A stretch of DNA of 64,000 bases. Source: a virus. The first letter of the stretch is position 1. Each line of letters opens with the position of its first letter. Positions 29,105-51,670 of the stretch are shown here, one piece after another. Position numbers and translations under genes: made by a program. The notes below the pieces were generated by a model. That model was given only the letters and a program-made list of their open reading frames with translations. It was not told where the DNA came from and did no database searches. Location of the stretch: IMG/VR virus record IMGVR_UViG_3300042894_003945, positions 72,879 through 136,878 of that record; one strand, given 5' to 3'.

Positions 29105-30042
29105 AACGATAGTTTATATTTTAACAATTTATCTTGTGTAAGAGGCTCTACTTTTTGAACTAAGGATAAAAAAGCTTGAAATCCCATCTCAGAAGGATCT
29201 TTGTCCTCCATTTCTACTAAAAAAACTTTCTTTCCCAAAGACGTCAAAGTCTCACAATGTTTTAATGCCATTTTTATAGCATCTCTATCCAAAGCTATGT
29301 AAACCTTTTTAATTCTCGATTCGACTAGTTTTTTCATTAGTTTGGGAGTTATTGATTTCCCTAATAGAGGTATGGCATTTCTTTTTATAGCTAACATATC
29401 AAACCCGCCTTCACACAGTACTACTGGTATATCCCAGTTTATATACATCTCAAAAGGTATTATATCTCTAGATGCTTGTGGATATTTGTACTTAAGTCTT
29501 GTTTCAGGATCGAAGGATCTGCCTACAAAGTAATTTATTTTACCAGATGCATCAAAAGAAGGTATTATAATCCTTTCTGCGTATTTACCCTCTTCGCAGT
29601 ATCCCATTTGGTATTTTATAATGTCTTCCTCTGTTATTCCTCTTTTTTTGAGGTATAACATAGCATGTTTTGCAAGTATATCGTAGGGTTTTGCATCTAA
29701 TAAGAACTTGTACTCTACAGGTAGGACTCCATCAAACTCTTCTGTATCTTCATCATCTCTATCACTTTTTACGACTATAGAAGAAAGTTTCTTCAGAATA
29801 TCAGAAGTAACTCCTGTCTTTCTAAATAAAGATCTAATAGTTCTTCCTTTATTACCGCATACCCAACAGGCCCATCTGTTATTACCTTCGGAGTCTGTTA
29901 CGATATCTACTTCTAATTTTTTCTTGTGAGTTCCATGAGATGGACAATCCGGAAATGGACAGTGATACTTCCTATTTGTTTTGGAAGCTTTTTCACCATA
30001 CCCTAAAACTTGGTCTATTAGACCAGAAAGAATTGTCTCCAT
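29101..30042 (-). CDS. DNA primase (Zn finger plus TOPRIM)
   Basis: CP..DC..H...W.CWVC, YL..RGI, RIIIP, EG.FD, LD.DA, KDP. Confidence 0.9.
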   Translation of the reverse strand: METILSGLIDQVLGYGEKASKTNRKYHCPFPDCPSHGTHKKKLEVDIVTDSEGNNRWACWVCGNKGRTIRSLFRKTGVTSDILKKLSSIVVKSDRDDEDTEEFDGVLPVEYKFLLDAKPYDILAKHAMLYLKKRGITEEDIIKYQMGYCEEGKYAERIIIPSFDASGKINYFVGRSFDPETRLKYKYPQASRDIIPFEMYINWDIPVVLCEGGFDMLAIKRNAIPLLGKSITPKLMKKLVESRIKKVYIALDRDAIKMALKHCETLTSLGKKVFLVEMEDKDPSEMGFQAFLSLVQKVEPLTQDKLLKYKLSL

Positions 30043-30046
30043 GAAT

Positions 30047-30078
30047 CAAAGTTAGGGACTAAATATCTTTTCTCCAAA
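30047..30078 (-). promoter_or_regulatory. Bacteroidota sigma-A type promoter (-33 TTTG, -7 TAnnTTTG) upstream of primase
   Basis: Minus strand TTTG (30078-30075), 20-nt spacer, TAACTTTG (30054-30047), 4 nt before the ATG. Confidence 0.65.
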
Positions 30079-30493
30079 ACTTACCTAACACGTTATCCAC
30101 ATAGCAGTTATCAGATTCTAAACATCCTTCTAAAATCTGATATCTAATTTCTTGGTAAGTCATTTGCTTTTTGTGTGTACACAAATGCAATATCTCTCTT
30201 TTAAACACATCTTTACCCTGTCCCTTCATATCGGCTTTAAGATTTGTATTAGACCCGTAATAAGTCTTCCAATCGCTCTCAGACACTACCTTCTTTTTGG
30301 TAGGCTTCTTACCCTTTCCAGTATGTTCGGATAACTCTTTTTTAGTGAGGGCTTTTGTTCTTTCTGAGTATAGATTCTTGCGCCCTACGTAAAATTTACC
30401 GTCTGAAGTTCTTGTTATCTTGTAAATAAAACCGTAAGTATTTTCTGGAAATTCTGATATATCATTTATAACTTGATCTTTGTATAACCACAT
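30059..30493 (-). CDS. GIY-YIG-family nuclease-like protein
   Basis: YGFIYKIT....KFYVGRK, W..YYGS, F.REIL. Confidence 0.75.
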   Translation of the reverse strand: MWLYKDQVINDISEFPENTYGFIYKITRTSDGKFYVGRKNLYSERTKALTKKELSEHTGKGKKPTKKKVVSESDWKTYYGSNTNLKADMKGQGKDVFKREILHLCTHKKQMTYQEIRYQILEGCLESDNCYVDNVLGKFWRKDI

Positions 30494-30494
30494 A

Positions 30495-30794
30495 TTATAT
30501 GTCCATTCTAATTAAAAAATTAGTATCTGTATCTGGGGATATGGGGATTGGCTGTGCAAACTTGGCTACCATCAAAAGATCGTTAGTATCATTGTAAAAC
30601 CCTACCATTGTTGCGTAAGGGGTGAAATCAGACCCGCTAGCAAACCCGAGCATCGTTTCTTTACTTCCAGAAACCATTATGCTAGGATTGTAACTATATC
30701 CCATTTCATGATCCTTAATAGTGCATTTTATGGACCTTTCCATTATTAAATGGCTATTCTTAAAAGTCAATGTAAAATCTTGATAAGCTGGCAT
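30495..30794 (-). CDS. Structural protein domain paralogous to the C-terminus of 41604-42635
   Basis: YNPS...PY.T.VG.YND.N.LL.VAK..QP aligns by eye with TTNPS...TTIGLYNDANELLAVAKLSKP. Confidence 0.7.
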   Translation of the reverse strand: MPAYQDFTLTFKNSHLIMERSIKCTIKDHEMGYSYNPSIMVSGSKETMLGFASGSDFTPYATMVGFYNDTNDLLMVAKFAQPIPISPDTDTNFLIRMDI

Positions 30795-30805
30795 ATTCTA
30801 CTTTT

Positions 30806-31564
30806 TTAACAAACTCCGGTATCAGAACATATATACCAAGTGTATATTAAACCTCCTCCAATTACAGGATTACCATCTACTGCTGTTATGGTAGCACTAA
30901 ATCTACCATTTGAGAAGTTAGATCCTACATTTTTAGTGGTATATACTAAAAGTACATCTTTATAACCTGCTGCAGGTATTGTTATATTGGCAGTATCTGA
31001 ATTAGTTAGATAATAAGGGAGACTTCCTACGCCTATTGTAGCGCTTACATCTGCTATTAATGTTCCAGTAGCTGGGGCTACTGCTGGTAATGTTGTTTCA
31101 TATAGGCCTCCGTATAAGCATACAGAAGTTCCACTAGTTGTGCTATTAACAAACTGGAGTCCGGTTAAGCTTAATTCAATAACAGATCCGACAGGACCAG
31201 TTAACCTTGCCCAAGCCTTTCCTCCTTGTCCACAAATATTACTATATCCTGTATAACTAGGATCAAATTCTACAGATATCGGAGTGGCCGTTGGCGTAGG
31301 CGTAGGCGTAAATGTAGGTCCAGGAGTTGGTGTAGGAGTAGGAGTAGAAACAGCTAATGCTATATTTAAACTATTGGTGCAGAGTCCTGTAGACTGTACA
31401 CTTATAACTGTAGAAGTTACATCAGTATTTACGTCATATCCAGCTAAAAGTTGAGCCCTACTAACCCCACTAGCAATAACTCCTAAGACATCGTCAGATA
31501 TCAAAAAAGGCCCGGCGTCTGTTCCTATACTAGATAAAGTAACTGTTGCTAGTCTTGTTGGCAT
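30806..31564 (-). CDS. Mucin-like (Thr-Pro repeat) putative virion protein
   Basis: AGPF...VSR..LL.GY N-terminal domain, (TP)n linker, beta-rich C-terminal domain. Confidence 0.7.
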   Translation of the reverse strand: MPTRLATVTLSSIGTDAGPFLISDDVLGVIASGVSRAQLLAGYDVNTDVTSTVISVQSTGLCTNSLNIALAVSTPTPTPTPGPTFTPTPTPTATPISVEFDPSYTGYSNICGQGGKAWARLTGPVGSVIELSLTGLQFVNSTTSGTSVCLYGGLYETTLPAVAPATGTLIADVSATIGVGSLPYYLTNSDTANITIPAAGYKDVLLVYTTKNVGSNFSNGRFSATITAVDGNPVIGGGLIYTWYICSDTGVC

Positions 31565-31565
31565 A

Positions 31566-32330
31566 TTATCCCTCCCATATTTGAATACTTACTAAATCAG
31601 TAGTAGTTATATCTACTGTAATATAGAAGTCTACTACGTCTCCTAAATTAAAATTATAAGACTGGTATGAACTTCCATTTAAATACAAGACAACACTTCC
31701 TGCATCTAAAGCAGTGTTGCTTGTGGCTGTTTTTCTGATTCTGTATATTACAGTGTTTGAAGCGCCTCCTGCTAAAATATAAGAATCATTTTTACCATAA
31801 GCAGTTGTTCCTGGTGAAGTTATGCTTATATTGTCTATAGTGCCTCCAGGGGTGCTATTTGAAACCTCAAACACACTAGAAGGCGATATTCCATCCATCA
31901 CAAGCTGCGCTCTGTGTCTAACTAAAGCTCCTGTTGGTGTAGGAGTAGGAGTCGCAGTCAATGTAGGCGTTGGAGTAGGTGTCAAAGTTATAGTCGGTGT
32001 AGGAGTAGGTGTAGAAGTTGCAAAAGTTACAGACCCTCCAAATAAAGTACAATTCAATACGAAAGTAGGAGTTGGTGTAGGAGTAACAGTTGGCACAGGA
32101 GTTGGTGTAGGAGTTGGAGTTGCTAAATAGTATACTTCAGAGTTCTGGCAATCAGAGTCTGTATTAACTACTATTATAGTAGTTGGACTGCCTGCTATAG
32201 TTACAGGATACCCTCCCAGCAAAGAAGATCTACTCACATTACTGTCAACTAAGGTTCCTACGGATACAGTATCGTAATAAATGTTAAAAGGACCTGCTGC
32301 GTCTCCTGATATAGTAACTATAAAATCCAT
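31566..32330 (-). CDS. Mucin-like (Thr-Pro repeat) putative virion protein
   Basis: N-terminal domain paralogous to 30806-31564; two (TP)n tracts; late motif at 32336-32343. Confidence 0.7.
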   Translation of the reverse strand: MDFIVTISGDAAGPFNIYYDTVSVGTLVDSNVSRSSLLGGYPVTIAGSPTTIIVVNTDSDCQNSEVYYLATPTPTPTPVPTVTPTPTPTFVLNCTLFGGSVTFATSTPTPTPTITLTPTPTPTLTATPTPTPTGALVRHRAQLVMDGISPSSVFEVSNSTPGGTIDNISITSPGTTAYGKNDSYILAGGASNTVIYRIRKTATSNTALDAGSVVLYLNGSSYQSYNFNLGDVVDFYITVDITTTDLVSIQIWEG

Positions 32331-32331
32331 A

Positions 32332-33417
32332 TTATATAAATATGATTTTGTTCACTTTTGACAAAGCCGATGCTATTACTTGGTGCATATCATAGTACTT
32401 ATAGTCTGCTAACCTTCCTCCAAAGATATACTTTTCTTCTTTTTCCATTAATTCTTTGTATTTGGAGTACTTTTTATTATTATCTGTGTCATTTATGGGA
32501 TAGTAAGGTTCTCCAAAATTTTCTGGATATTCCATGGAGATGATGGTATTTTTTTGTTTTCCAAACTCAAAATGCTTGTGTTCAGTTATTCTGGTAAAAT
32601 AAACCTCTTCATCTGTATAGTTCATTCCTGCTACCCCTTGATAATCAGGCATATTTAAATTGTAAGTTTCAAATCTTAAACTCCTATAATCTAATTTTCC
32701 AAACTTATATCCATAAAAAGCATCTACAGGTCCTGTATAAATAGTTTTACGGGCTATTGAATCAAAGTATTCTTTTTGTTCAAAATAATCACAATTTAGC
32801 TTTACTTCTACGCCATATAAGAGTTTTTCAAATATGCCAGTATACCCTCCAATTGGTATCCCTGAGTAAGTATCTTCATAATAATTATCCTCAAAAGACA
32901 GCCTTATAGGAAGCCTTTTTATTATACTTGTAGGGAGATCTTTAGGATCTTTGTTCCATTGTTTCTTTGTATACCCCTTTATAAAAATATTATAGATCTC
33001 AGGACCTACCTGAGATAGGATCCACTCTTCTAGGTTTTTGGGGCTGTTGTTAGGTATTTTAACATCCTCTAATTTTCTAAAGGCTTCGTCTGGCGTTGTT
33101 ACTCCATACAATTGGTACAGCGTCATTAAATTAATTGGAAAAGAGTATATCTTTCCTTTGTAGTTAACTTTAGGTCTGTATTTAAAATCATTAAACTCAG
33201 CGTAGTTATTTACGTAGTCCCATACTTTTTTATCCGATGTATGAAATATGTGTGGGCCATATTTGTGCACATTTATATCGTCTACGTTCTCAGTGTAGCA
33301 GTTTCCACCAATATGAGACCTTTTTTCTACCACTAAACACTTATACCCGTTATCGGACAATTCTCTGGCGCATACAGCTCCAAAAAGTCCTGAGCCTACA
33401 ATTAAGTAATCGTACAT
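32332..33417 (-). CDS. glf: UDP-galactopyranose mutase
   Basis: GSGLFG FAD-binding motif, HIGGNCY, H.YGPHIFHT, YT.KQW, EPYYP, GRLA.YKYYDM. Confidence 0.95.
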   Translation of the reverse strand: MYDYLIVGSGLFGAVCARELSDNGYKCLVVEKRSHIGGNCYTENVDDINVHKYGPHIFHTSDKKVWDYVNNYAEFNDFKYRPKVNYKGKIYSFPINLMTLYQLYGVTTPDEAFRKLEDVKIPNNSPKNLEEWILSQVGPEIYNIFIKGYTKKQWNKDPKDLPTSIIKRLPIRLSFEDNYYEDTYSGIPIGGYTGIFEKLLYGVEVKLNCDYFEQKEYFDSIARKTIYTGPVDAFYGYKFGKLDYRSLRFETYNLNMPDYQGVAGMNYTDEEVYFTRITEHKHFEFGKQKNTIISMEYPENFGEPYYPINDTDNNKKYSKYKELMEKEEKYIFGGRLADYKYYDMHQVIASALSKVNKIIFI

Positions 33418-33418
33418 A

Positions 33419-33970
33419 TTATTTTTTAAAAACCATTATTGTATTTTTGAACCACCACCATTGTGGGACTTGTCTTAAAACAGATTCTACTTCTTTTTCT
33501 CTATGAAACCCGTAATTTAAAAATAAAGATTCTATATACTCGTTTGGACGCTCATTGTAATGTCCATACCCTCCTTGTCCAATTGTAGCCCAAGAAAGTA
33601 TTACAAGATTTTTAGAATGCTTTACTATGTTTTCTATAAAAATAGATTCATACTCTTCGGGAATATGTTCTCCTACTTCCAAAGATAGTACACAATCGTA
33701 AGTTTTGCCTAGATCTACAGGAACTGATAAGTCCAAAATTCCACAAAGGTTATTGGATATTTCTGGTGTATTAGGGTTTCCATCATAACAATCACAAGTA
33801 AATCCGTCTTGTATAAACCTCTCTGCGTACTGTCCTGGTCCACATCCTAGATCTAATATAGAATCTACCCCATAAGATTTCAGATATTTAGATATCTCTT
33901 CATTTAAAGGCTGATCATACTTATGGTTATGAGTTCCGTTGTCTTCCCAAAATCCTCTTTCATTTATCAT
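33419..33970 (-). CDS. SAM-dependent methyltransferase
   Basis: ILDLGCGPG (motif I), SLEVGEHI, GQGG.GH.N. Confidence 0.85.
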   Translation of the reverse strand: MINERGFWEDNGTHNHKYDQPLNEEISKYLKSYGVDSILDLGCGPGQYAERFIQDGFTCDCYDGNPNTPEISNNLCGILDLSVPVDLGKTYDCVLSLEVGEHIPEEYESIFIENIVKHSKNLVILSWATIGQGGYGHYNERPNEYIESLFLNYGFHREKEVESVLRQVPQWWWFKNTIMVFKK

Positions 33971-34779
33971 ATTGGAAATATTTGTCCTTCTTTATATTTT
34001 GTTGGCAACGCCATCCAACTTTCACATATAACATCCTCTGTATCTTGAGGCCCCCCAGGTCCACACCAAGTTCTTGGAGCCACTACCACTTTAGAGTCTT
34101 CATTGCAAAGATAAGCTCCCCACCAAGAAAAAGAAGAATTAGATAAAATAAAATTATGGCACATTGAAATAGTCCAAAGAGCTTTCCAAGTAGAAACGTC
34201 TATAAATTTCATTTTTGGAAGTTTTATATTTTCTCTGCACCAATCCAAATCATCACTTATTATAAAGTAAACATCAGTGTTTTTTATCTGATTGGCTGCT
34301 TCATTTATAAAGTCTGTAGTAATTACAGGATGGGTATGTAAATTTAAAAGATAATCCCCTCTCCTAACATTTATACAAGTAACTACCTCATTTAATAATT
34401 CTGGGTGGTCCTTTTGGGTTTGTTCTATGAACTCTTCTGTTGGGGAAAATAAAAATTTTATAAAGCTGGAAATATTAATAAAATTTTTTTCGCTCTGATA
34501 ATACCCTTCGTATATTGTTACCCCTTCGTCATAAGGTTTAACTGGTTCATATTGGTATGGGGCGGATATTGTCCTTCCTTGGGGCAGCACATTTAGCTTA
34601 AAATCAAGTTTTCTATAGACATTATCCTTATAATGATTAAGATCGAATACTTGATCTTTAGAAAATAAAAAAGGTTTGTTGTATTGTATTGACTGGGCTA
34701 TGCAGTTGGATATCATAAACATTTGATTTCCTAATCTGCCTACCATTTTAGAAGTAAGAAAATTTCTATTCGAAATCAT
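33967..34779 (-). CDS. Alpha-1,2-fucosyltransferase-like (GT11)
   Basis: GRLGNQMF, GYYQSE, NVRRGDY, SDD..WC, NSSFSWWGA. Confidence 0.9.
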   Translation of the reverse strand: MISNRNFLTSKMVGRLGNQMFMISNCIAQSIQYNKPFLFSKDQVFDLNHYKDNVYRKLDFKLNVLPQGRTISAPYQYEPVKPYDEGVTIYEGYYQSEKNFINISSFIKFLFSPTEEFIEQTQKDHPELLNEVVTCINVRRGDYLLNLHTHPVITTDFINEAANQIKNTDVYFIISDDLDWCRENIKLPKMKFIDVSTWKALWTISMCHNFILSNSSFSWWGAYLCNEDSKVVVAPRTWCGPGGPQDTEDVICESWMALPTKYKEGQIFPI

Positions 34780-35437
34780 TTTCGTTGTGCTTTATTACTC
34801 TTTTATAACTCTCTAAAAATAAATCTACTCCTACACTTTTTCCCCAAGCATCCAAATCACTAACACCTTCTCTCTGTGCCACAGCTATAGGACTAACTAA
34901 GTATTTGTTTATATAATGCCTCTGTCCTAACCAACCATCTATTGCAGAATCTCTAAAAGGCGTGTAATCATCTATTATTGTTTTTATAACGCTTCTTTTG
35001 TATCCTATAGCGTGTGTTGTAAGTATAGTTGGAGCTTTATACAAGGTAGTTGACACTCTAAACATTTCATGTATAGGATGTCCTCCAAAATAAATCATAT
35101 CCCAGTCTGAGAAGTTAGATATTTCATCTAAGGCTTTTTCTGATAAGTCTACTCCTTTTGTTTTTCCTCCATCATAAAAATAAGCATCATCTTCAAATAT
35201 AACAACATTTTCATATCCTTCTTCATATATTTTAGTAAAAAGTTTGTGATATGTTAAAGAGCAATAACAATGTTTTTTTATAGGATCTGGCTCTTTTATT
35301 GAATCCTCGGCGGATACCCTCTCGAAAAAACCTCCTAATCCTACTCTACTCATCTCATTTTCAAAAAAGACTTTTCTATCTTCTCTTCTGTCTAAGTTTA
35401 TGTAGTATCCTTTTTGAAAAAAATCTTTTATTTTCAT
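34766..35437 (-). CDS. Glycosyltransferase family 25
   Basis: YINLDRR.DR, H, IFEDDA, WDMIYFG. Confidence 0.85.
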   Translation of the reverse strand: MKIKDFFQKGYYINLDRREDRKVFFENEMSRVGLGGFFERVSAEDSIKEPDPIKKHCYCSLTYHKLFTKIYEEGYENVVIFEDDAYFYDGGKTKGVDLSEKALDEISNFSDWDMIYFGGHPIHEMFRVSTTLYKAPTILTTHAIGYKRSVIKTIIDDYTPFRDSAIDGWLGQRHYINKYLVSPIAVAQREGVSDLDAWGKSVGVDLFLESYKRVIKHNENDFE

Positions 35438-36150
35438 CTCAATATATGGATATAATCTTCTATATTAAATGTTTCCCCTAATAATTCTTTACACTTTTTT
35501 ATAAAATATACTCTTTTATCTGGTATTCTTATTTGATAATTATGGAAAGTCCCGCTTTCAAACTCTGTTCCATTTCCAAGAGAGAATTTTGGATACCCAA
35601 AACTCCCATCATATTTCCAGGTTAGATCAGAGTAGCATTTGGTAGGGTATGCTAGTATTATTTTTTTACCTTGTTTTTCATTTTCCCTAGTAAACATTTC
35701 GGCTACGTCAACTTCTGTTAGGTATCCTTCAGGATTTGGATAGTGTGTAAATTTAAAATTTTTACACGTAGACTCTTCCCAAAATTTTTTAGTAAAATTT
35801 AAAAAGTTAGGAGCCGCAAATGGTGGAGTTTTGTGGGGATTTATATCAAAAACATTAGAAGCCTGTACGTTACCATACAAAGTGCCATTATCCTTAATAA
35901 TATCAATAGCTTTGATAATACAATCATTAGAAATTGGTATACAGTCTATATCAAATAAAGTTATAGAATCCCAATCGTTATTTGAGCTAAGATATTCTTC
36001 TATTGCACATGCATGTCTATCGGCATTTAAATCATCCTTAAAAGGGATTTGACATACGTCTATTTTGAAAAAATCAAAAACTCTTTTTTGAAGAGTTATA
36101 ATTTCTTTTGGCAGATCATTACCATAGAAACTAACTACTTTATGATTCAT
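35434..36150 (-). CDS. Putative GT-A fold glycosyltransferase
   Basis: LFDIDCIP (DxD motif); located inside the glycosylation cassette. Confidence 0.55.
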   Translation of the reverse strand: MNHKVVSFYGNDLPKEIITLQKRVFDFFKIDVCQIPFKDDLNADRHACAIEEYLSSNNDWDSITLFDIDCIPISNDCIIKAIDIIKDNGTLYGNVQASNVFDINPHKTPPFAAPNFLNFTKKFWEESTCKNFKFTHYPNPEGYLTEVDVAEMFTRENEKQGKKIILAYPTKCYSDLTWKYDGSFGYPKFSLGNGTEFESGTFHNYQIRIPDKRVYFIKKCKELLGETFNIEDYIHILR

Positions 36151-37333
36151 TTTTTACAAGGTTATTTATAAAACCAATCCACATATTTCCAACTTTGCTA
36201 ACGTTAAAATTAGAAACAATATAATCTTTACCTTTATTTCTTATTTCTTCCTTTATAGAAGGGTTTTCTTCTAGAAATTTTATTTTACTTACTATGTTAT
36301 CCGTTATGGTAAACTTTCCATCTAGATCTTTAGATAAGGCCTCTTTCTGCATATCATGAGGGATTACGCCTTCTGGGAAGTCTAGCCACACGCAATACCC
36401 GTCAAATAGCTCTGGTAAGGCCCCTAGAGGATACGTTACTACTATTGCTCCTAATGCTATCGCTTCTGCTACTACACAAGAGAAAGTATCTTTGTGAACA
36501 TCTTGATAAGGTGTATATAAGGGGTATATAAAATACTCGCTTTCTGCCACATTAGTGAAAAGTGTTTTTTTATCCACTCCGTTGTGCCTATTAAAAAAAG
36601 AATCATCGTGATTGTGAGTAGCCATAAGATAATCAAAAGCATGAAATTCTGAATCTTCAAAATTTAATTTTCTTACTGCTTCTACTGCTACGTTTCCTCC
36701 TCTTGCCCAAGCTGCATGAAAAATAAACTTATGGGGTTTCCTTATAGGATTAGAATCTGTGACTTCTTTTATCATCTCATCCATTACTGGATTAGGTATT
36801 AGCGTCTGTTCTATTTTGATTTCGGGAGCTATATTCTTTATGTGAGTTAGAATATTCCCAGTCATACTTTTTTCCCATTCTGATATATTAATAAACCCTA
36901 TGGAAAGATTGTTATTTTTAGCAAAATTAACAATTTCATCTACTCCGTACACCCATTGCATGTGGGACCAGTATATTATACTTTTTGTAACCTTTATGGG
37001 AAGGGAATCATATTGATTAAACCACAACATGCTTATCAATATGTCAAACTCTTTATTTTCAATTCCTTTAAAATCTATGTGCGTATATTTAACCCCATAA
37101 AACTCTTCTCCGTCCTTATATATAATTCCATTATTTTTATAGGAGTTGTGCAACTCAGGCTCAAGCTTATCCGTTGCAAAAACAACTTCATGTCCAGCCT
37201 TAGCCAGATGTTCAGCTATTAAAACAGAACTAGTGTCTGTTCCAGACCCTCCCCCATTTCCATATCTTAGGTTATAACCATTAAGGTAGTTACTTCTTCT
37301 GCTATTACCTATAACAATAAAGGCTATTCTCAT
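36140..37333 (-). CDS. GT-B fold glycosyltransferase (GT4-like)
   Basis: GG.GT, LA..GHEV, IPN, YP......DTFSCVVAEAIA.G and GALPE. Confidence 0.8.
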   Translation of the reverse strand: MRIAFIVIGNSRRSNYLNGYNLRYGNGGGSGTDTSSVLIAEHLAKAGHEVVFATDKLEPELHNSYKNNGIIYKDGEEFYGVKYTHIDFKGIENKEFDILISMLWFNQYDSLPIKVTKSIIYWSHMQWVYGVDEIVNFAKNNNLSIGFINISEWEKSMTGNILTHIKNIAPEIKIEQTLIPNPVMDEMIKEVTDSNPIRKPHKFIFHAAWARGGNVAVEAVRKLNFEDSEFHAFDYLMATHNHDDSFFNRHNGVDKKTLFTNVAESEYFIYPLYTPYQDVHKDTFSCVVAEAIALGAIVVTYPLGALPELFDGYCVWLDFPEGVIPHDMQKEALSKDLDGKFTITDNIVSKIKFLEENPSIKEEIRNKGKDYIVSNFNVSKVGNMWIGFINNLVKNES

Positions 37334-38586
37334 TATATATTTTTTTCGTATCTATCACTCCACTTTTTATCTTCATCAAACAAATACATTACTATTTTAT
37401 GAGGTTTATCTATCGACTCTAAAGAAAGAGATACTGAATTCTTTTTTAGTTTTACATAATCTGAATCATTTTCTATAGTAAAATCTCTTCTTATTATCTC
37501 TGATCCTGATTTATTTTGGACTCCTAAAGTTAAAAATTTAGGTTTTTTTGATTTGAATTTTTTAAAGAAAGCAACATCCCATTCTATATCAAGAGAAAAT
37601 TTATTTACTATGAATTGTTCTTCCCAATTTATAGGATTTGGCGGTTCATTTACTTTAAGAGTGTACTGTTGTATTCTACAGTTTTTAAAATCAAACCCTC
37701 CATAGACTTCATAATCATGTAAAGTTCTACTATCTCCTAAACCATAAATACCCATATCTATTCCATGATCTTCTTGCCCAAACAATTGCCTTGTTTTGTT
37801 TCTAGCATATATGTCTCTTTCTCCAGATGTTTTTTTAGTCTCGCTTTCTATTCCATGATCATCCCAGTGTTTTACACGATAGTTTCTTGTGTATTCGTGC
37901 CACATAACCATTCTGTGTGGACTAAAGAAGTCATACCCTTTAGTAAAAGCTCTTACACTTAATGTAGTTTCTTCTGTGTACCCTCCAAAGTATATGTCTG
38001 GGTCATAAGGAACTTCTTCTATGAATTTACCTGTTGTAAAATAGAAATGTCCACTAATAGTCCTAGCTCTTATTACTTTTGTTCTTTCTTTATAATCTTG
38101 AATGTACCAAGGCATGCTCATGAGTAACTTATCAGCGGAAAACTCATACTGAGACATTAGGCATGGAGTAGGATCGTATTTACAAGAACAGTCTTTTGGG
38201 TTGAATGGGGTACAGTATGTAGTTATAATAGGCTTTTCAGAAACCTCTAAAGCCTGTGCATAATCTTCCAAAACAATGGAGTCCCAGTCTTGTACAAATC
38301 TATGATGACTGTCTATCTGTAAAGTAAATTCCTCTCCATCATAAAGTCTATTAGTTATATTCCTTGCCCAACCTAATCCCTGACTTTCTGAATAGTGATG
38401 TTTGCTTATACTAAAATTGTGCATGCCATCAAACACTGTTATGTCTTCCGTTTCATCGTACTGCCAGCAAATTCCAAAAGTTAAATTTTCTGGGTTCTTT
38501 GCCTTGGTTATCATGTCGTCTATAGTGGGAATGAGCTCAGGATCTCTATAACTAGCTACCTGAACAAATATTTTGTTCTTTTTCAT
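37333..38586 (-). CDS. GT60-like polypeptide/hydroxyproline N-acetylglucosaminyltransferase
   Basis: IFVQ.ASYRD.EL, S.G..WAR, LQIDSH.RF..WD, EVPYDP..YF.GEE-like, H.Y. Start moved to ATG 38586. Confidence 0.85.
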   Translation of the reverse strand: MKKNKIFVQVASYRDPELIPTIDDMITKAKNPENLTFGICWQYDETEDITVFDGMHNFSISKHHYSESQGLGWARNITNRLYDGEEFTLQIDSHHRFVQDWDSIVLEDYAQALEVSEKPIITTYCTPFNPKDCSCKYDPTPCLMSQYEFSADKLLMSMPWYIQDYKERTKVIRARTISGHFYFTTGKFIEEVPYDPDIYFGGYTEETTLSVRAFTKGYDFFSPHRMVMWHEYTRNYRVKHWDDHGIESETKKTSGERDIYARNKTRQLFGQEDHGIDMGIYGLGDSRTLHDYEVYGGFDFKNCRIQQYTLKVNEPPNPINWEEQFIVNKFSLDIEWDVAFFKKFKSKKPKFLTLGVQNKSGSEIIRRDFTIENDSDYVKLKKNSVSLSLESIDKPHKIVMYLFDEDKKWSDRYEKNI

Positions 38587-38601
38587 AAACTGAATTTGTA
38601 C

Positions 38602-38609
38602 CAAAAATA
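38602..38609 (-). promoter_or_regulatory. Candidate Bacteroidota -7 element for the glycosylation operon
   Basis: TATTTTTG matches TAnnTTTG, 15 nt upstream of ATG 38586; no clear -33 TTTG at the canonical spacing. Confidence 0.4.
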
Positions 38610-38648
38610 AGAAAATTTTTTAAAAGAGAAAAAACAATAATTTAAACA

Positions 38649-41585
38649 TTAAAGGCAAACTGCTTCGGCACAAAATCCTCCAGAACAATTACTCTCACAC
38701 TCTGCTAATGAAGTGTAAATGATAAAATCTTGAGAACACTGGTAGCAGGTTATAGTAGGCTCAGGAGTAGGAGTGGGTGTCGGAGTATCAGGTACAGCTG
38801 TAGGGGTAGGTGTCGGAGTATCAGGTACAGCTGTAGGGGTAGGTGTCGGAGTTGGTGTTATAGTCGGTGTAGGAGTTGGAGTGTTAGGTACAGCTGTAGG
38901 AGTTGGAGTAGGTGTTACCGTAGGAGCTGGGGTTGGGGTAGGTGTTGTGCTACAAACGGCCCCTTGTACGATAGCTATACAATCTGAGCTTCCTCCGCTA
39001 CACTCTACTCCGTCAAAACTAAAACTTCCTTCTATTGCGCATATATTATAACTCTGTATGCCATTTCCAGTAGCAGTGAACGATTGTGGATTTCCTGAAC
39101 AGTCATTATAGAAAATAGTCTTAGAAACCGTATAATAGTTAGTTACCTCATAAGTATAACATCCAGCTACCGTTGCAGTTGGTGTCGGAGTTATAGTCGG
39201 AGTAGGAGTTGGGGTATTAGGTACAGATGTAGCTGTTGGTGTAGGTGTAGATGTTATGGTAGGGGTTGGTGTTGGAGTATTAGGTACAGGAGTTGGAGTA
39301 GGTGTTGTATTACAAGTAGCTCCTTGAACAACTGATATACAATCACTACTACTGTTATCACAGAAGATACCGTCAAAAGTTATAGTACCTTCTATAGCGC
39401 ATATATTATATGTTTGCAAACCATTAGCCGCTGTTGTTACTGATTGTGGATTTCCAGAACAGTCATTGTAGTATACAATCTTTTGAGTAGTATAATAGTT
39501 GGTTATTTCATAGGTATAACAGCCTGCTATAGTTGCAGTAGGTGTTGGAGTAATTGTTGGGGTAGTAGTAGGCGTAGGAGTTGGGGTATTAGGTACAGAT
39601 GTAGCTGTTGGTGTAGGTGTAGATGTTATGGTAGGGGTTGGTGTTGGAGTTGGAGTCGGAGTTCCTGTACAAGAAGATCCTTTTACTATAGCTAAGCAAT
39701 CTGTAGAACCTCCATTACAGTCTGTTTCAAAATGGGTAACAGTGCCTTCTATAGCGCAAATATAAGACTGCAGTCCGTTTCCGGGAGCCGATACGGTTTG
39801 TGGATCGTTATTGCAATCGTTGTAGTATACAGTTTTATTTGTTGTATAATAGTTAGTTATTTCAAAAGTAAAGCATCCAGCAGGGGTTGGTGTAGGAGTT
39901 ACAGTTGGAGTTCCAGTTGGTGTAGGAGTTACAGTTGGAGTGTTAGTTATAGTAGGAGTAGGAGTTGGTGTTAAAGTTATAGTAGGAGTAGGAGTTGGTG
40001 TTAAAGTTATAGTAGGAGTAGGAGTAGGGGTATCGGTTATAGTTGGAGTAGGAGTAGGGGTATCGGTTATAGTTGGAGTAGGAGTTGGTGTATTAGTTAT
40101 AGTTGGAGTAGGCGTTGGTGTATTAGTTATAGTTGGTGTTGGTGTTATAGTCGGAGTAGCTGTTGGTGTTGGTGTTATAGTCGGAGTAGCTGTTGGAGTG
40201 TTAGTTATAGTAGGAGTAGGAGTTATAGTAGGAGTAGGAGTTGGTGTAAAGGTTGGCGCTCCAGTATTAGTAGGAGTAGGGGTAGGCGTAGCCGTACCTG
40301 TAGGGGTAGGCGTTGGTGTTATAGTAGGAGTAGGGGTTATAGTAGGAGTAGGGGTTATAGTAGGCGTAGCTGTAGGCGTAGCTGTAGGAGTAGGAGTAGG
40401 GGTATCGGTTATAGTTGGAGTAGGAGTTGGTGTATTAGTTACAGTAGGTGTTGGTGTCGGTGTAACAGTAGGAGTGGACGTTGGAGTACCAGTAGGTGTA
40501 GGGGTAGGTGTAGCGGTTACTGTCGGTGTAGGAGTAGCCGTTGGCATTAAGAATGTTGGAGTAGGTGTAGGAGTAGGAGTTGCTGTAGGAGCAGGAGTAG
40601 GTGTAAATGTAGGTGTTGGAGTCGCTGTAGGGCCAGGAGTAGGTGTAGGAGTTGGTGTAGGAGTTGGTCCTGGTACGGTTACATCTTTAACATACAGAAT
40701 AAACCCACATAAAGCTTTTTCAACATTTACGGTTATTTTTGCAAAATTTGAGTTTAAAACACAAGAACTTCCTGTAGGAGTAGCAGACACTCTGTAATCG
40801 GTTGTATAAACTCCAGGAACCGCTCCTGTAAAAGTTACTGTTCCGTTTCCTACTACAGTAAACTTAGATGCATCAGACCCAGATAACAATATAGATCCTG
40901 TTCCAAAAGTACCTCCCCTAGCATTGTCGTTAGCTAAAGGATTAAAATTATATGGAGATTGAGAAGGTCTTATTGTGTATGTATCATCCTTTGCATAAGG
41001 AGGGAGTGGAAATATGCTTTGATAGCCTTGATTAGTCACCACTATCATTCCTTGCTCATAAAATATATTACCTACATGAGTATAGGGAGATGTAGCCAAA
41101 TCGTACACATTTCCTTTTCCATCGTCCTGTAGATTCATAAAGGACGTAGAAATATTAAAAGAAAGATCTTTTACAGCAAATCCGTAAACATCTTTTGAAA
41201 TAGATAGAACTTTTATTTGAGCTCCTGAACCTGATGGGAAATCTTTTATCATATACCCAACAGGAGTATAATCAAAATAGGAACCTGAGAGTCTGTATAT
41301 AGATGCGCTCTCGTAGTAATTAGACTCTAAAAGCAATGAGCTGTCTAAGAGAGATCCTGAAAAGGATTGATAATACAGATGGTTTACTGAATCATAAACC
41401 AATCTATCGTATTCGTTATTTGTTTTTACATCATTATTGTAATCAAATATACTAGAAGTTTTCACTCCATTATACACTCTTATACCATAAGACTCTAGAT
41501 CGCAAACACTTATACTCCACTCCTTATTAGCGACATAAGGAGTACTTACTACATCTGACTTATATAAACGTTTGTATGCCGACAT
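38649..41585 (-). CDS. Structural protein with Ig-like segment, long mucin-like (Thr-Pro) tract and three Cys-rich repeats
   Basis: N-terminal DDG.GN...VGNIFY.QG..V.T; A.DD.Y...NPL.ND Ig-like start; about 260-aa TP tract; three 6-Cys repeats. Confidence 0.8.
39880..40675 (-). repeat. (Thr-Pro)n coding repeat
   Basis: 6-bp periodicity with several 18- to 30-bp exact tandem duplications (e.g. about 39946-40130). Confidence 0.9.
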
Positions 41586-41603
41586 ATTTAGTCATAACGA
41601 ATT

Positions 41604-42635
41604 TTAAAATTCTAATTTGACTCTACATGTTATTTGCTTAGTGAAATCTTTTGGCAATGGTTTGCTGAGTTTTGCAACCGCTAAAAGCTCATTAGCATCA
41701 TTGTACAGTCCTATAGTAGTTGGAAACACCTGAGGGCTGTCTATCAATGTCGGATACAATATGTTACCGTTATTGTCAATAATTGATGGATTAGTTGTAT
41801 AATTTAACTGGGAGCTCTTTGCATTTACAAAGAAGTATCTAGATGCTAAGGTTTCTTCACTATTTGCTTTAAAAGACTGGCCATCAAGTATAGTCTTAAA
41901 CAATCTAAAATTATTTATACTGTACCCAGCGGTGTATGCAGTGGCTGCTGTTTGATCTATGGTTAAACCTAATCCTTTGTTTGCGCCGTAAGTAAGAGCC
42001 AAAGCTCTTGGATTCAAAATAAATACTCCCATATCAGGGAAGAAAAATCCATAGGAACCACTTACTGTTTGTACAGATGAATCATCGTAGCTACTTCCAT
42101 TAGATCCACTAACTATGTTATAATATCTGTTCCCAGCTATATAGTTAACAGTAGAAGAGTCTTTACTATCGTCAGTTAACGTGATTGCGTTACCTCCATT
42201 TGACAATACTAAATTCCAGGTTCCTGTGTTTATTTCTTCTTTGTACCTTGATCTGTTTATGGATATAGCAAAGATATCAATAGACACGCCATTGTTTCCT
42301 CCAAAATTAAAAGACGATCCCTCGTCACCGTAAACTATATTTCTAAACTGTCCGTAAATGTCTCTAGTAGGGGATTTTTCATTTACTAAGTTGTTAAACA
42401 AGGCAGATCCACTACCGTATATATTACCGTATGCTATTGCAAACTGTACTTCCGATCCTACAGATCCTACTGAAGAATTGTAGACATTCAAATAGAATTT
42501 TCCACTATCACTAGCTTCTTGTACGCTAGACGTAAAGAAGGTGGTCAAGTTGTATAAATTATTTGTCCACAAGCCTGCTGTAATAGCTTCCGTGCTTATT
42601 ACGCTATCGTCTTCTTGAAAAGGTATAAATGACAT
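41604..42635 (-). CDS. Virion/baseplate structural protein
   Basis: C-terminal T.IGLY.D..ELLAVAKLS.P, similar to tail-collar/baseplate domains; in the baseplate cluster. Confidence 0.7.
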   Translation of the reverse strand: MSFIPFQEDDSVISTEAITAGLWTNNLYNLTTFFTSSVQEASDSGKFYLNVYNSSVGSVGSEVQFAIAYGNIYGSGSALFNNLVNEKSPTRDIYGQFRNIVYGDEGSSFNFGGNNGVSIDIFAISINRSRYKEEINTGTWNLVLSNGGNAITLTDDSKDSSTVNYIAGNRYYNIVSGSNGSSYDDSSVQTVSGSYGFFFPDMGVFILNPRALALTYGANKGLGLTIDQTAATAYTAGYSINNFRLFKTILDGQSFKANSEETLASRYFFVNAKSSQLNYTTNPSIIDNNGNILYPTLIDSPQVFPTTIGLYNDANELLAVAKLSKPLPKDFTKQITCRVKLEF

Positions 42636-42643
42636 CTTATATG

Positions 42644-43312
42644 TTATTTGTTTTTAGTCACTGTTAATGGAACTGATATTCTTGCTCCGGAATCTCTACC
42701 TACTATTGTAATAGTAGTACTTAGTTGAGTAGCTGTTGATCCAAAAAGCGTGTCTATTCCTGTTCCTACTAGAGTGAATGAAGTTCCTATGGCTGTTTTA
42801 CTAATAGCTGTGCCAGTAGTGGTGCTAAGATCTGATATTCCTAAATTGTTTACGTCTATTCCTATACCGGTAAATGTAGATAGGAGTCTAGCATCTCCTA
42901 CTGTAACTACATATCCGCTAGGTTCAAACGTTGAAACGGCGCCTAAATAGTTAAGAGTTTGAGGATTTATAACATAAGACTCATTTTGTTTAATAGATAT
43001 GGCGTTAGACGAGCCCTTTCCAACAACAACTACCGGTAATTTGCTTGTACCTCTAGGGAGAGTCACAAGCTTGTATTTCATTATCTGAGTTTCGTCTGGG
43101 AAGGCTTCTAATAGCGGCATATTTTCTATAGCCTGTCCATAGAATGCAGAACCAGACGGATGGTCTGGGTTATACAAGGTGTAATCCACCTCGTCATCTG
43201 CCATGGCAAATTGTGTAATCTGGAAAGAGCCGTCATTTCTTGCCAAAAGCTCTCTTCCTTTTTTTGTTAAAATAGCGTCTACTGTGACTACTACATTATT
43301 TAAATATCCCAT
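42644..43312 (-). CDS. Virion/baseplate structural protein
   Basis: DAILT.KGRELLA....F.IT.FA..DDE.DY; late motif upstream. Confidence 0.7.
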   Translation of the reverse strand: MGYLNNVVVTVDAILTKKGRELLARNDGSFQITQFAMADDEVDYTLYNPDHPSGSAFYGQAIENMPLLEAFPDETQIMKYKLVTLPRGTSKLPVVVVGKGSSNAISIKQNESYVINPQTLNYLGAVSTFEPSGYVVTVGDARLLSTFTGIGIDVNNLGISDLSTTTGTAISKTAIGTSFTLVGTGIDTLFGSTATQLSTTITIVGRDSGARISVPLTVTKNK

Positions 43313-43357
43313 TTCTCAAATTTGTATATATAAATATGGTGCTTTAATGTTTTAAGG

Positions 43358-45538
43358 TTATGCTATAACTAATACTTTAGATAGAACTGTATCTTTCAAA
43401 GGTCCTATAATTTGTCCTATGTTCTTATTTATAGTTCCCTCCAAGTTATGAGGCAAAATTAAGGCATTTGAAGATAAACCAGCTCTTTTTTTGAAATCTA
43501 ACATTATAACGGTTTCGTCAGGCAGTTTCCTGAAGAAGGCAAAGGTTGCAGGGTCTATTAGGTTTGAATTGTAAGTTCTATCCAATCTTATAGACAAAGG
43601 CCTTGTAGCAGTCCTCTGCGTTCCTATGTTTTCAATAAGGGGGTCTACCACTTCTGTTATATAAAAGTACTCTGGTTTAACAGAGTAAAACCTAGTAAAC
43701 CTTACTATGTCATTTTTTTGAAACGTAAATGGAACGTCTACGGGGGAGTATAGGTTTGCTACAGAATTTGGATTACTTATATCTTGTGGCTCAAATATAG
43801 AACTTGAGTACAAAAGGGAAGCTTCCGAACTAAAAACCAAAGTTTGATTGTCGGGATCAGTTGTAAATAAGGCCGGGGACTGTGATATTGTTTTAGTGGA
43901 CAGTATGGTTACATCAGCTATCTTTTTGTCATATACCTCAAAATAGTTTTTAGAAGAGTCTCCGGTAGCCACTTCAAAGTATATATCTGAACTCCTTCTA
44001 AAAAAGCTTGTTACTTCTGCAAAGTAAAATCTTACTCTTATTTTATCATTTTGATTCAATTTTACATCTTTATCGAAAAGTTGACATCTTCCTTCATAAA
44101 AAGGAGTTATAGTCTTGCCGTTATAAGTTCCTCCCGTAGTGTCTCCGGAAAAGTATATAAAACTATTACTTTCATCTATTAATGCACGAGTAGTTCCTGT
44201 TCTCTCTCTACCTCCTAAAGGTATTGGAATATTAGTGGCAGAGAACCTCGTAAATCCGTAAGGAACTACATTAGCCGGATTTGAAGTGTCTAAATACTCC
44301 CACGTAGATGCGCCACTCTTTTGAACTTCAAGTATAGCTATAATTTTTACAACAGAAGGACCTTTTTCATTAGACCTTTCTCCCGCTGTTTCTGGATTTC
44401 TGGCTCTTACTTTTACAGGGATGTCTATATTTACTGTATAGGTAGAACTTCTGGGGGCTAGATAGTAAGAATAGTTTTCAGAGCCTGCTTTAACTTCGTT
44501 TATAGTACCAGCTTGATTCAAAGATATATAACCTCCACTATTAGTCGTTGTGTCTACGGGTAAGAACCAGTCTATAGCATAATAACTTGCAGGATCAGTA
44601 TTTGTTTTAAAATCTATAAATGCTAATTCTCCAAAAGTAAACGCTATTTTTCTTATGTTATTTTGGTAATCTTTATAATTACCACTTAACCAAGATCTTA
44701 AAGGCATATGATTATAAGGCCAAGCATCACTGCTTATCTTACTTAAAGACATAGCCCTATTATTAGGATCGGATAGCCCTTTTAACGTAAATGTATAACC
44801 TGTACCGCTATTGCTAGAAAACTCAGCATTTGTGTTTCCTACTGTCTGCCATACGGATGCGGTAGTGTTTACAGCTTTTAGACCAAATCTATTTTCTACT
44901 GATTCGTTAGGGATTATATATGAGAAAACTAAATTTTCATCAGTTTCTCTAAACATAATTGGGGCGTATCTAAACCCACCTTCAAATATAGTCTTAGGAC
45001 CGTCTAATGTAGCTTGGTTAGTTGGATTGTATCTATCAAACAAGGACACATATGCAATATCTCCTTTTTTGTATGTATTTTGTACTTCAAATAAGTTATT
45101 ATTATTAGCAGATAATTCAACTACAGATCCTGTATTGTCTATTAAATACTTTATGTTTACAGTGGTCTTGTCGTAGAAGTTCAGATTCGTACTGTTTATA
45201 CTATTTGCAAAAGCAAATTTACTAACTGTATAGTCTATAGCTGCTGTTTTTCCATAGGAGGTGTCTCCTTTCCAATCTATTTCTTCCAATCCTACATTAA
45301 AAAAAGATGCGCTAGTATAGACATTATACTTTGCACTAGTTACTTTGGACCCATCAAATCTTACCCTTGTGAATTTAGGATCTGTCTGCAAATCATCATG
45401 CATCTCAACAGGCTCTAAAACTCCGGTTTGATTCATGTTAATCTTTCTATATACATTAGAAACAAGTCCCCCAGACACATTATTAATTAATGTATTATAG
45501 TCACTACGTTCAAAAGCTGCTCTGTCTATGGTACTCAT
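43358..45538 (-). CDS. Putative structural protein
   Basis: 726 aa, beta-rich, coupled to the upstream gene by an ATGA overlap. Confidence 0.6.
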   Translation of the reverse strand: MSTIDRAAFERSDYNTLINNVSGGLVSNVYRKINMNQTGVLEPVEMHDDLQTDPKFTRVRFDGSKVTSAKYNVYTSASFFNVGLEEIDWKGDTSYGKTAAIDYTVSKFAFANSINSTNLNFYDKTTVNIKYLIDNTGSVVELSANNNNLFEVQNTYKKGDIAYVSLFDRYNPTNQATLDGPKTIFEGGFRYAPIMFRETDENLVFSYIIPNESVENRFGLKAVNTTASVWQTVGNTNAEFSSNSGTGYTFTLKGLSDPNNRAMSLSKISSDAWPYNHMPLRSWLSGNYKDYQNNIRKIAFTFGELAFIDFKTNTDPASYYAIDWFLPVDTTTNSGGYISLNQAGTINEVKAGSENYSYYLAPRSSTYTVNIDIPVKVRARNPETAGERSNEKGPSVVKIIAILEVQKSGASTWEYLDTSNPANVVPYGFTRFSATNIPIPLGGRERTGTTRALIDESNSFIYFSGDTTGGTYNGKTITPFYEGRCQLFDKDVKLNQNDKIRVRFYFAEVTSFFRRSSDIYFEVATGDSSKNYFEVYDKKIADVTILSTKTISQSPALFTTDPDNQTLVFSSEASLLYSSSIFEPQDISNPNSVANLYSPVDVPFTFQKNDIVRFTRFYSVKPEYFYITEVVDPLIENIGTQRTATRPLSIRLDRTYNSNLIDPATFAFFRKLPDETVIMLDFKKRAGLSSNALILPHNLEGTINKNIGQIIGPLKDTVLSKVLVIA

Positions 45539-51272: not shown

Positions 51273-51670
51273 TAGGTTATTTGTATTAATATAGAGTCAG
51301 CATTATTATTTATCGAATAATTAAGCTTTATGTTTAAAAGATTTCTATCATAATCAGGAGAAAAGTCTAAAGCATTAACTGTTATCATAGGAAAATAAAT
51401 TCCAAGATTGCTTAGTAAAATGTCTCTTGCATCCGTAAAATCAGAAAGTTGATCGAAAAGAAGCTTTCTTAAATCAGCTCCAAACTCAGGATTAAACACC
51501 CTCTCTCCTTTATTGGTAAGCAGGTAGTTTGTCAAGTTACTTTTTATCTGATCTTTTGTTGTGTAGTTAGTAGTGAATACGTTAAAATCGTTGAATGGTA
51601 ATCTTATACCTATCCCCCTATTAGGGTTCCTATCGGAAGCAGTCGTTGTATATGTTACCCTTCTCCTCAT
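51272..51670 (-). CDS. gp25: Baseplate wedge subunit (gp25-like)
   Basis: IK.NL.N.LLT.KGER.FNP.FG..L..LLF. Confidence 0.9.
   Translation of the reverse strand: MRRRVTYTTTASDRNPNRGIGIRLPFNDFNVFTTNYTTKDQIKSNLTNYLLTNKGERVFNPEFGADLRKLLFDQLSDFTDARDILLSNLGIYFPMITVNALDFSPDYDRNLLNIKLNYSINNNADSILIQIT

Follow-up and report, generated by a model that had tools for sequence, protein, structure and literature searches.

Genes for a candidate mucin-type O-glycosylation system among the Thr-Pro fibre proteins of an uncultured T4-like phage

The stretch of 64,000 nucleotides analysed here (the window) comprises bases 72879-136878 of the IMG/VR virus record IMGVR_UViG_3300042894_003945, which is linear, contains 136,878 bases and is estimated to be about 80% complete. 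Positions are those of the window unless the record is named. The gene content identifies the source as an uncultured T4-like tailed phage with a lytic-type genome. Between positions 30806 and 41585, seven coupled genes led by a GT60-like glycosyltransferase gene are located on the minus strand between the gene for a 978-amino acid (aa) protein with long Thr-Pro (TP) tracts and the genes for two smaller TP proteins. This arrangement was proposed in a first-pass annotation of the letters alone, and is found in full. We consider the chance to be better than even that this module is a phage-encoded system for cytoplasmic mucin-type O-glycosylation of the phage's own TP fibre proteins before assembly. 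Such a system would be of a kind already known, virus-encoded glycosylation of virion proteins, and would be widespread in environmental phages.

The GT60-like gene (37333..38586, minus strand) encodes a soluble glycosyltransferase (GT), which is proposed to be an initiating polypeptide O-N-acetylhexosamine (HexNAc) transferase. GT60 enzymes are relatives of polypeptide N-acetylgalactosamine (GalNAc)-transferases and add the first HexNAc to Thr or hydroxyproline in Dictyostelium and Trypanosoma. The gene product matches PF11397, the Pfam family named 'GlcNAc' (N-acetylglucosamine), with an E-value (E) of 4.9e-60 and a score of 204.3 bits against a cut-off of 21, and the match covers profile positions 2-47 and 101-351 in two stretches. 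When 14 phage GT60 homologues are aligned, down to 35% identity, the LQxDSHHRF and WHEYTR blocks are invariant, and the D-S-H of the former, an acidic metal-binding motif, is retained in 14/14 sequences. The AlphaFold2 (AF2) model of the enzyme is confident (predicted local distance difference test score, pLDDT, 85.7) and superposes on GT-A catalytic domains. When Foldseek is run with this model, the top rows are polypeptide GalNAc-transferases (ppGalNAc-Ts), and the first other protein, TarS, is found at rank 49. The model has the architecture of a ppGalNAc-T catalytic domain. By sequence, membership of GT27 is not detected: neither phmmer nor a profile of the 14 sequences finds a PDB chain at E up to 1, and no Pfam match to GT2 or GT27 is obtained. 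The assignment of the lead enzyme to GT60 is thus borne out; the enzyme is a PF11397/GT60 member by sequence and, as modelled, has a ppGalNAc-T-like catalytic domain by structure. Residues 328-417 (37333-37602) form an extra C-terminal beta domain, which is confidently modelled at the position where ppGalNAc-Ts carry a lectin domain and aligns poorly, the root-mean-square deviation being 12.4 once it is included. At the locus L056, where the open reading frame (ORF) encodes 317 aa, this domain is absent.

The GT60 gene is followed by six further enzyme genes on the same strand. The product of the first of them (36140..37333), the constant partner of GT60, matches Glyco_trans_1_4 of Pfam below threshold (E 0.0086). 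When 18 of its homologues are aligned, Glyco_trans_1_4 is matched by 12, Glycos_transf_1 by 9 and Glyco_transf_4 by 6 of them. Its assignment as a GT4-like glycosyltransferase of the GT-B fold is therefore carried by the homologue family, and is moderately supported in this form. The 238-aa protein (35434..36150), for which a DxD-type GT-A transferase had been proposed, has no match in Pfam, NCBIfam or PDB; its FDxD motif is invariant in 9/9 homologues, and a GT-A transferase is plausible on the strength of this one motif. The GT25-family glycosyltransferase (34766..35437) matches PF01755 (E 3e-6) above the Pfam cut-off, but marginally and partially (27.7 bits versus 24). The remaining assignments are supported by Pfam: a GT11-family glycosyltransferase (33967..34779; PF01531, E 1.9e-24), a candidate S-adenosylmethionine (SAM)-dependent methyltransferase (33419..33970; Methyltransf_23, E 3e-7) and Glf, a uridine diphosphate (UDP)-galactopyranose mutase (32332..33417; PF03275, E 7e-73), which would supply UDP-galactofuranose. 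Glf scores above the cut-off of the NCBIfam equivalog TIGR00031 for UDP-galactopyranose mutase (376.9 versus 303.75 bits) and has an N-terminal flavin adenine dinucleotide (FAD)-binding region (NAD_binding_8, E 4.8e-23). The other six enzymes of the cassette have no match in NCBIfam, and searches of PDB by sequence and profile with the GT60, GT4-like and 238-aa proteins give matches only at the chance level. GT25 enzymes are typically beta-galactosyltransferases, GT11 enzymes are alpha-1,2-fucosyltransferases, and Glf makes UDP-galactofuranose (UDP-Galf).

The 978-aa TP protein (38649-41585, minus strand) consists of 25% Thr and 16% Pro, with 127 TP dipeptides; its T/P tracts add up to 447 residues and span residues 301-571, 637-687, 755-807 and 877-948. 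Its N-terminal part of about 190 aa (41016..41585) is a conserved inherited domain and the probable virion-attachment part. It is followed by an Ig-like beta-sandwich at about residues 200-290 (40716..40988) and by a 271-aa TP stalk at residues 301-571 (39873..40685), which is proposed to be the main O-glycosylation acceptor. The remainder (38652..39872) consists of three six-Cys modules of about 65-70 aa (residues 572-636, 688-754 and 808-876), which are 58-69% identical to one another, TP linkers of 50-70 aa (residues 637-687, 755-807 and 877-948) and a Cys-rich tip (residues 949-978). The six-Cys region is matched in four stretches by phrog_15511, a family annotated as of unknown function. 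When residues 1-300 are modelled by AF2, the beta-sandwich is the confident part (all beta, pLDDT about 80-94), and it gives weak leads to Big_9/cadherin-like families in the ESM Atlas (score 0.78). The 254-aa TP protein (31566..32330, minus strand) has a 65-aa N-domain, T/P tracts at residues 67-92 and 101-136 (62 residues) and a C-domain. The 252-aa TP protein (30806..31564, minus strand) has a homologous N-domain (42-43% identity), a T/P tract at residues 70-98 (29 residues) and a distinct C-domain. The DNA repeats beneath the TP tracts, with periods of 6, 12, 18 and 30, are imperfect and matched only to 60-70%. This result indicates that the repeat is kept at the protein level. The 136,878-base record has 11 copies of the (TP)4 DNA pattern on its coding strand, 9 of them in the three TP genes, and a reversed-pattern control gives 0.

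A fourth TP protein of 277 aa is encoded at positions 67588-68418 of the record, about 4.5 kb to the left of the window. It contains one TP-flanked six-Cys module (27-31% identity), and its gene adjoins that of a 2865-aa fibre. The ORF for this fibre (positions 69372-77966 of the record) extends beyond the left edge of the window (1-5088), and has long Gly-Ser/Thr-Ser/Thr tracts and a collagen-like look.

The three TP proteins had been described as lacking a signal peptide. They have no signal-like N-terminus and no membrane segment, and the same is true of the enzymes: across these ten proteins no 19-aa window exceeds a Kyte-Doolittle mean of 1.85, the highest value among the enzymes, which is reached inside a core segment of the GT-B protein. 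These profiles support the solubility of all seven enzymes and the three TP proteins.

Comparison with relatives that have neither GT60 nor TP genes shows where the module is placed. Five such relatives are available, of which four are complete genomes. In 5/5 of them, a single gene of about 320 aa fills the slot between a homologue of the 343-aa gene, which precedes the module here (44-50% identity), and the primase gene, so that the 343-aa homologue, the ~320-aa gene, a small GIY-YIG-like ORF and the primase gene are all within 1.5-4.7 kb. In the locus L363, positions 1583-2554 are listed as the site of the ~320-aa gene of the GT60-negative relatives. Residues 1-200 of the 323-aa protein of one relative (G054) are similar to residues 1-187 of the 978-aa protein (29% identity, E 3e-16), and its residues 230-322 are similar to a 99-aa ORF at the other end of the module (30495..30794, minus strand; 44% identity, E 3e-25). 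These two ends are about 10 kb apart in the window and flank the whole block. Because the single G054 protein matches two separate parts of the window, the block lies inside what the relatives hold as one gene. The 99-aa ORF then represents the C-terminal end of the ancestral structural gene of about 320 aa, and borders the slot on the right. It was also considered as a paralogue of the C-terminus of the 343-aa protein (31% identity); this origin is rejected, because the G054 comparison identifies it as a piece of a different gene of about 320 aa. The N-terminal domain of the 978-aa protein is kept in eight aligned relatives. The loci L003, L009, L011 and L042 show the same arrangement as the window, with a separate 99-aa ORF (76-77% identity) after the TP genes.

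The inserted block consists of the Ig-like domain, the TP stalk, the Cys modules, the seven enzymes and the two smaller TP proteins. The best available argument for acceptors and enzymes belonging to one module is this gene arrangement, which suggests that the block was gained as a unit. The 978-aa protein is probably anchored in the virion via the inherited structural domain. The cassette is within the baseplate/fibre gene block, and thus the transferases are located with structural genes. In a relative that is 79% identical by capsid (L061, on the same contig as L089), a GT60 of only 39% identity occupies the same slot, between TP proteins and before a homologue of the 99-aa ORF, which suggests that the module has been replaced there. 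Because this divergent GT60 is again located between TP proteins, the enzyme set appears to diversify, while the pairing of GT60 with TP proteins stays.

The association of GT60 with TP genes was examined across viral records, as the first-pass annotation had suggested for related phages. A scan of IMG/VR gives 79 distinct loci with a GT60 homologue (34-78% identity). A TPTP-rich ORF is found within 10 kb of GT60 in 43 of them, and in 31 it is on the same strand and ends at most 700 nucleotides (nt) upstream of GT60. A search of whole records covered 43 of the 47 GT60 loci that are on contigs of at least 44 kb; the (TP)4 coding pattern is detected in 31 of these 43 records, including 4/4 that are at least 90% complete, and the reversed-pattern control gives 0. 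As a phylogenetic control, 38 of the 80 capsid-related records, those of at least 30 kb, were compared. The pattern is present in 4/5 of the records with PF11397 versus 2/33 of those without it (Fisher p 0.001, a value that overstates independence because the records are kin). Both PF11397-negative exceptions are fragments, 21-37% complete, of close relatives, and the pattern is present in 0/9 GT60-negative capsid-related records that are at least 70% complete. The co-occurrence is thus confirmed in related phages. In the reverse test, for which 44 records were chosen solely for a (TP)6 pattern, PF11397 is found in 10; by comparison, a GT60 homologue occurs in only 4 of 50,697 cultured-phage records. 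In metagenomes, GT60 homologues number at least 3000.

A similar association is observed in bacteria. The bacterial set consists of 78 genomic loci, in which the GT60 homologue is 33-43% identical, and spans at least seven phyla (Verrucomicrobiota, Acidobacteriota, Actinomycetota, Planctomycetota, Bacteroidota, Gemmatimonadota and Pseudomonadota). A TP-repeat ORF lies within 10 kb of GT60 in 23/78 of these loci, and 18 of the 28 TP-repeat ORFs are within 600 nt of GT60, as compared with about 6% under uniform placement. Prophages, or phage contigs assigned to the wrong bin, may account for part of this set. In several Pseudomonadota and Sphingomonas-type records from bacterial metagenome-assembled genomes (MAGs) or isolates (L303, L308, L314, L317 and L360), an ORF of 1220-1450 aa with a Pro-Thr linker ends 0-15 nt before GT60. 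A 6.6-kb contig labelled as a giant-virus MAG (L021) contains GT60 (67%), GT-B (58%) and Glf (55%) in the phage order, and probably comes from a phage that was binned with a giant virus.

The enzymes downstream of GT60 are conserved to different extents over the 79 viral loci. The GT-B gene is directly downstream of GT60 in 54 loci and Glf is present in 44, so that GT60, GT-B and Glf constitute the constant core. In contrast, GT25 is found in 39 loci, GT11 in 25, the 238-aa protein in 12 and the methyltransferase in 2. The patchy distribution of GT11, GT25 and the methyltransferase indicates that the glycan is variable.

A mechanism may be proposed on this basis. GT60 would transfer the first HexNAc, probably alpha-GlcNAc from host UDP-GlcNAc, onto Thr residues of the TP tracts. 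Extension with further sugars, including galactofuranose made via Glf, would fall to the GT-B partner together with the variable GT25, GT11 and 238-aa enzymes, and the methyltransferase may cap the glycan. The proposed order of the sugars (HexNAc, then galactose, fucose and a methyl cap) is drawn from the family names. The product would be a stiff, protease-resistant, hydrated and glycan-coated stalk that displays the Cys-rich modules.

The proposal of a cytoplasmic viral mucin coat, made in the first-pass annotation, is supported in part, by the family of the lead enzyme, the solubility of the proteins, the co-occurrence of GT60 with TP genes and the inherited structural domain, but the link is not obligate and the glycan is variable. 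Several results weigh against the proposal. TP tracts are found in GT60-negative phages, PF11397 being absent from 34 of the 44 TP-sampled records, among them 5 of the 6 with a completeness of at least 90%, which indicates that TP tracts can be plain linkers. Conversely, 36 of the 79 viral GT60 loci have no TP ORF within 10 kb, 12 of the 43 GT60 records have no (TP)4 pattern, and more than 100 kb separate the TP genes from the cassette in one complete record of 335 kb (G004). Proximity within whole records is enriched only modestly (15 of 41 clusters within 10 kb versus 8.0 expected), and the genomes are related rather than independent. Attachment of the 978-aa protein to the virion is deduced from gene position and from homology to an uncharacterised protein, and the AF2 model of its residues 1-300 has an overall pLDDT of 49, with residues 1-190 unmodelled. 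The donor sugar and the acceptor residue are assigned by family membership, and the module, probably a sugar coating of fibres, is known here from genes alone. Finally, the glycoproteins of phage XacN1, which carries a GT60 homologue, are not assigned to this homologue in the available part of the paper that reports them (PMC5852040). The co-occurrence pattern is the one that is expected if the enzyme needs TP acceptors while TP tracts exist for other reasons too.

Alternatively, the cassette may glycosylate other virion proteins, such as capsid or tail-tube termini or the 2865-aa Gly-Ser/Thr fibre, the TP tracts being just flexible linkers. The records in which TP linkers occur without GT60 (34/44) or GT60 without (TP)4 (12/43) would be accounted for in this way; the 2865-aa fibre encoded by the same genome, with its long tracts, could be a second acceptor, and mycobacteriophage glycans are located on the C-termini of capsid and tail-tube proteins (Freeman et al. 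2023, as cited in the available part of PMC12619734). This explanation is unlikely, given that GT60 and TP genes co-occur at the genome level, are immediate neighbours in 31/79 viral loci, abut in the case of 18/28 bacterial TP ORFs and share one inserted block in this phage. Linkage to hydroxyproline rather than threonine, as in Skp1/Gnt1 or plant arabinogalactan-type (TP)n, is very unlikely. One characterised GT60 member does act on hydroxyproline, and Pro alternates with Thr throughout the tracts, but this linkage needs a prolyl hydroxylase, and no 2OG-Fe(II) oxygenase (PF13640, PF03171) is found in the 137 kb of the roughly 80% complete record.

It is also conceivable, though with a rather low probability, that the enzymes serve, during infection, to make or alter a glycan not attached to protein, such as host lipopolysaccharide (LPS), capsule or an envelope polymer, for example to block superinfection. 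GT25, GT11, GT4 and Glf are typical of LPS/O-antigen loci, and one source labels the homologues 'glycosyltransferase involved in cell wall biosynthesis'. However, the seven enzymes lack membrane segments, and no cassette ORF has a match to a family of flippases, polymerases or lipid-carrier-priming transferases. Moreover, the lead enzyme most resembles polypeptide transferases, and the cassette is placed within a structural gene, in a T4-like genome of the lytic type. A search of the 136,878 bases of the record, about 80% complete, finds no PF00589 integrase, so that lysogenic conversion is unlikely too, and the cassette does not resemble the serotype-converting or envelope-modifying type, which has membrane-bound enzymes and is encoded by temperate phages. 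Likewise, the search of this record makes supply of guanosine diphosphate (GDP)-fucose or of an epimerase by the phage unlikely. The least probable explanation, for which we see hardly any room, is that the transferases hypermodify phage DNA with glycans. There are phages in which multiple transferases glycosylate DNA (Pyle et al. 2024, as cited in the available part of PMC12619734), but the fold of the lead enzyme is ppGalNAc-T-like, the genes are in the structural block instead of the replication block, and no thymidylate-synthase-type hydroxymethylase (PF00303) is found in the same bases of this incomplete record. Mucin-type O-glycosylation of the TP fibre proteins is the most likely of the explanations considered.

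When this module is compared with known systems, the protist GT60 enzymes are among the nearest. Gnt1 of Dictyostelium is cytoplasmic and acts on Skp1, and the phage GT60 enzyme is soluble too. The phage enzyme shares strong Pfam membership with the protist enzymes (Trypanosoma cruzi TcOGNT-2, Dictyostelium Gnt2 and Gnt1), and has Thr-rich mucin-like candidate acceptors encoded by adjacent genes. It differs from them in that it comes from a tailed phage and would act in the bacterial cytoplasm instead of the Golgi, has the extra C-terminal beta domain (residues 328-417) and is known from its gene alone. In T. cruzi mucins, alpha-GlcNAc is O-linked to Thr by a polypeptide alpha-GlcNAc-transferase homologous to Dictyostelium Gnt2, and is extended with beta-Galf or beta-galactopyranose (Galp), as described in the available part of PMC3769586. 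The phage GT60 is likewise paired with a supply of galactofuranose, as in the core-2 mucin glycans of T. cruzi reported there. In contrast, the animal and apicomplexan GT27 polypeptide GalNAc-transferases, which initiate mucin-type O-glycosylation, are only 11-15% identical in sequence to the phage enzyme, which has no sequence-level match in PDB even by profile.

Glycosylation of virion proteins by viral enzymes provides further comparisons. In mycobacteriophages, structural proteins of the virus itself are substrates of phage-encoded transferases (Freeman et al. 2023, as cited in the same part of PMC12619734), as is proposed here. There, however, capsid and tail-tube C-termini are modified according to this source, whereas the candidate acceptors here are TP stalks and the lead enzyme is of a different family. 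In chlorovirus PBCV-1 and other giant viruses, the virus encodes cytoplasmic machinery that glycosylates its own structural proteins (PMC5852040, available part), but the host is a eukaryote, the capsid-protein glycans are atypical and N-linked, and the enzymes are unrelated. Among cultured phages, the distantly related Xanthomonas jumbo phage XacN1 encodes a full-length GT60 homologue, ORF334 (34% identity). Its ORF325, next to baseplate wedge genes, contains a linker in which 13 residues precede PTPTPTP. The XacN1 ORF334/ORF328 region resembles the module in that a giant protein with a Ser/Thr-Pro linker, adjacent to the baseplate genes, is encoded about 9 kb from ORF334, and differs from it in having other accessory enzymes (carbamoyl transferase, GT9) and no long TP stalk. 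XacN1 virions are reported to contain 'at least two glycoproteins', and phage transferases, among which ORF334 is named, are proposed as their possible source, while the available part of this paper makes no link to GT60 or TP tracts (PMC5852040).

In our literature search, no paper was found that describes GT60/PF11397 phage enzymes together with TP proteins; a preprint merely lists GT60 among viral CAZy matches. A more general proposal, to which we give slightly less than an even chance, is that tailed phages and bacteria of many phyla carry out real mucin-type O-glycosylation, with a soluble, ppGalNAc-T-like GT60 enzyme initiating dense glycans on (Thr-Pro)n stalks in the cytoplasm. Phages would build glycan-coated 'mucin' fibres and vary the composition of the glycan by exchanging the transferases that act downstream; genes for substrate and enzymes would enter structural genes jointly, as one module; and the protist GT60 enzymes that initiate mucin glycans may stem from this prokaryotic and viral pool. 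Experimental proof of glycosylated phage particles comes almost entirely from mycobacteriophages. The present proposal, if true, would add a second, widespread route, which uses the mucin-initiating enzyme family of protists and a recognisable acceptor motif. The Thr-Pro 'linkers' of phage fibres would then have to be read differently, a variable glycan layer would be added to host recognition, particle stability and antigenicity, and a simple bacterial or phage model of mucin-type initiation would become available. The idea is testable, because the cultured phage XacN1, reported with virion glycoproteins, carries a homologue. Cultured carriers of GT60 are Xanthomonas and Stenotrophomonas jumbo phages, which include XacN1, Xoo-sp13 and the Stenotrophomonas phages CM1 and RAS14.

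Nearly all genes of the window are on the minus strand. They include those for the major head protein (9495-11135), the portal protein (17927-19780), the large terminase (19823-21415), the primase (29101-30042), a baseplate wedge subunit (49377-51272; phrog_10646) and a gp25-like baseplate wedge protein (51272-51670; PF04965). The conserved 343-aa protein of the baseplate region (41604..42635, minus strand) is encoded downstream of the gp25-like and wedge genes and directly upstream of the module, and forms the left border of the slot. The gene order from 5' to 3' on the minus strand is 343-aa protein, 978-aa TP protein, GT60, GT-B, 238-aa protein, GT25, GT11, methyltransferase, Glf, 254-aa protein, 252-aa protein, 99-aa ORF, GIY-YIG-like ORF and primase. 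Between adjacent genes of the module there is an overlap of 1-14 nt or a spacer of 1 nt, except for an AT-rich gap of 62 nt before GT60. The neighbouring 343-, 222-, 726-, 796- and 366-aa proteins have no match in PHROGs and Pfam, and megablast of positions 30000-45000 against cultured phages gives no match, so that the phage has no close cultured relative in terms of DNA sequence. No tRNA gene is found in the window. A scan for sigma-70 promoters gives 45 (shuffled expectation 55.3) and a scan for terminators gives 6 (7.4), and the Bacteroidota-type -33/-7 motif is not enriched (4 versus 2.1 expected, 4 being reached in 15 of 100 shuffles).

In PHROGs, the families that match the 144-aa ORF between the 99-aa ORF and the primase gene (30059-30493) carry the annotation homing endonuclease or 'NAD synthetase'. 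A 149-aa homologue is located at the same place in the GT60-negative relative G054, which indicates that the 144-aa ORF is a resident gene outside the inserted block. The GC skew turns to between +0.23 and +0.28 within positions 38000-42000 alone, because the ACN-CCN codons of the TP tracts lie on the minus strand.

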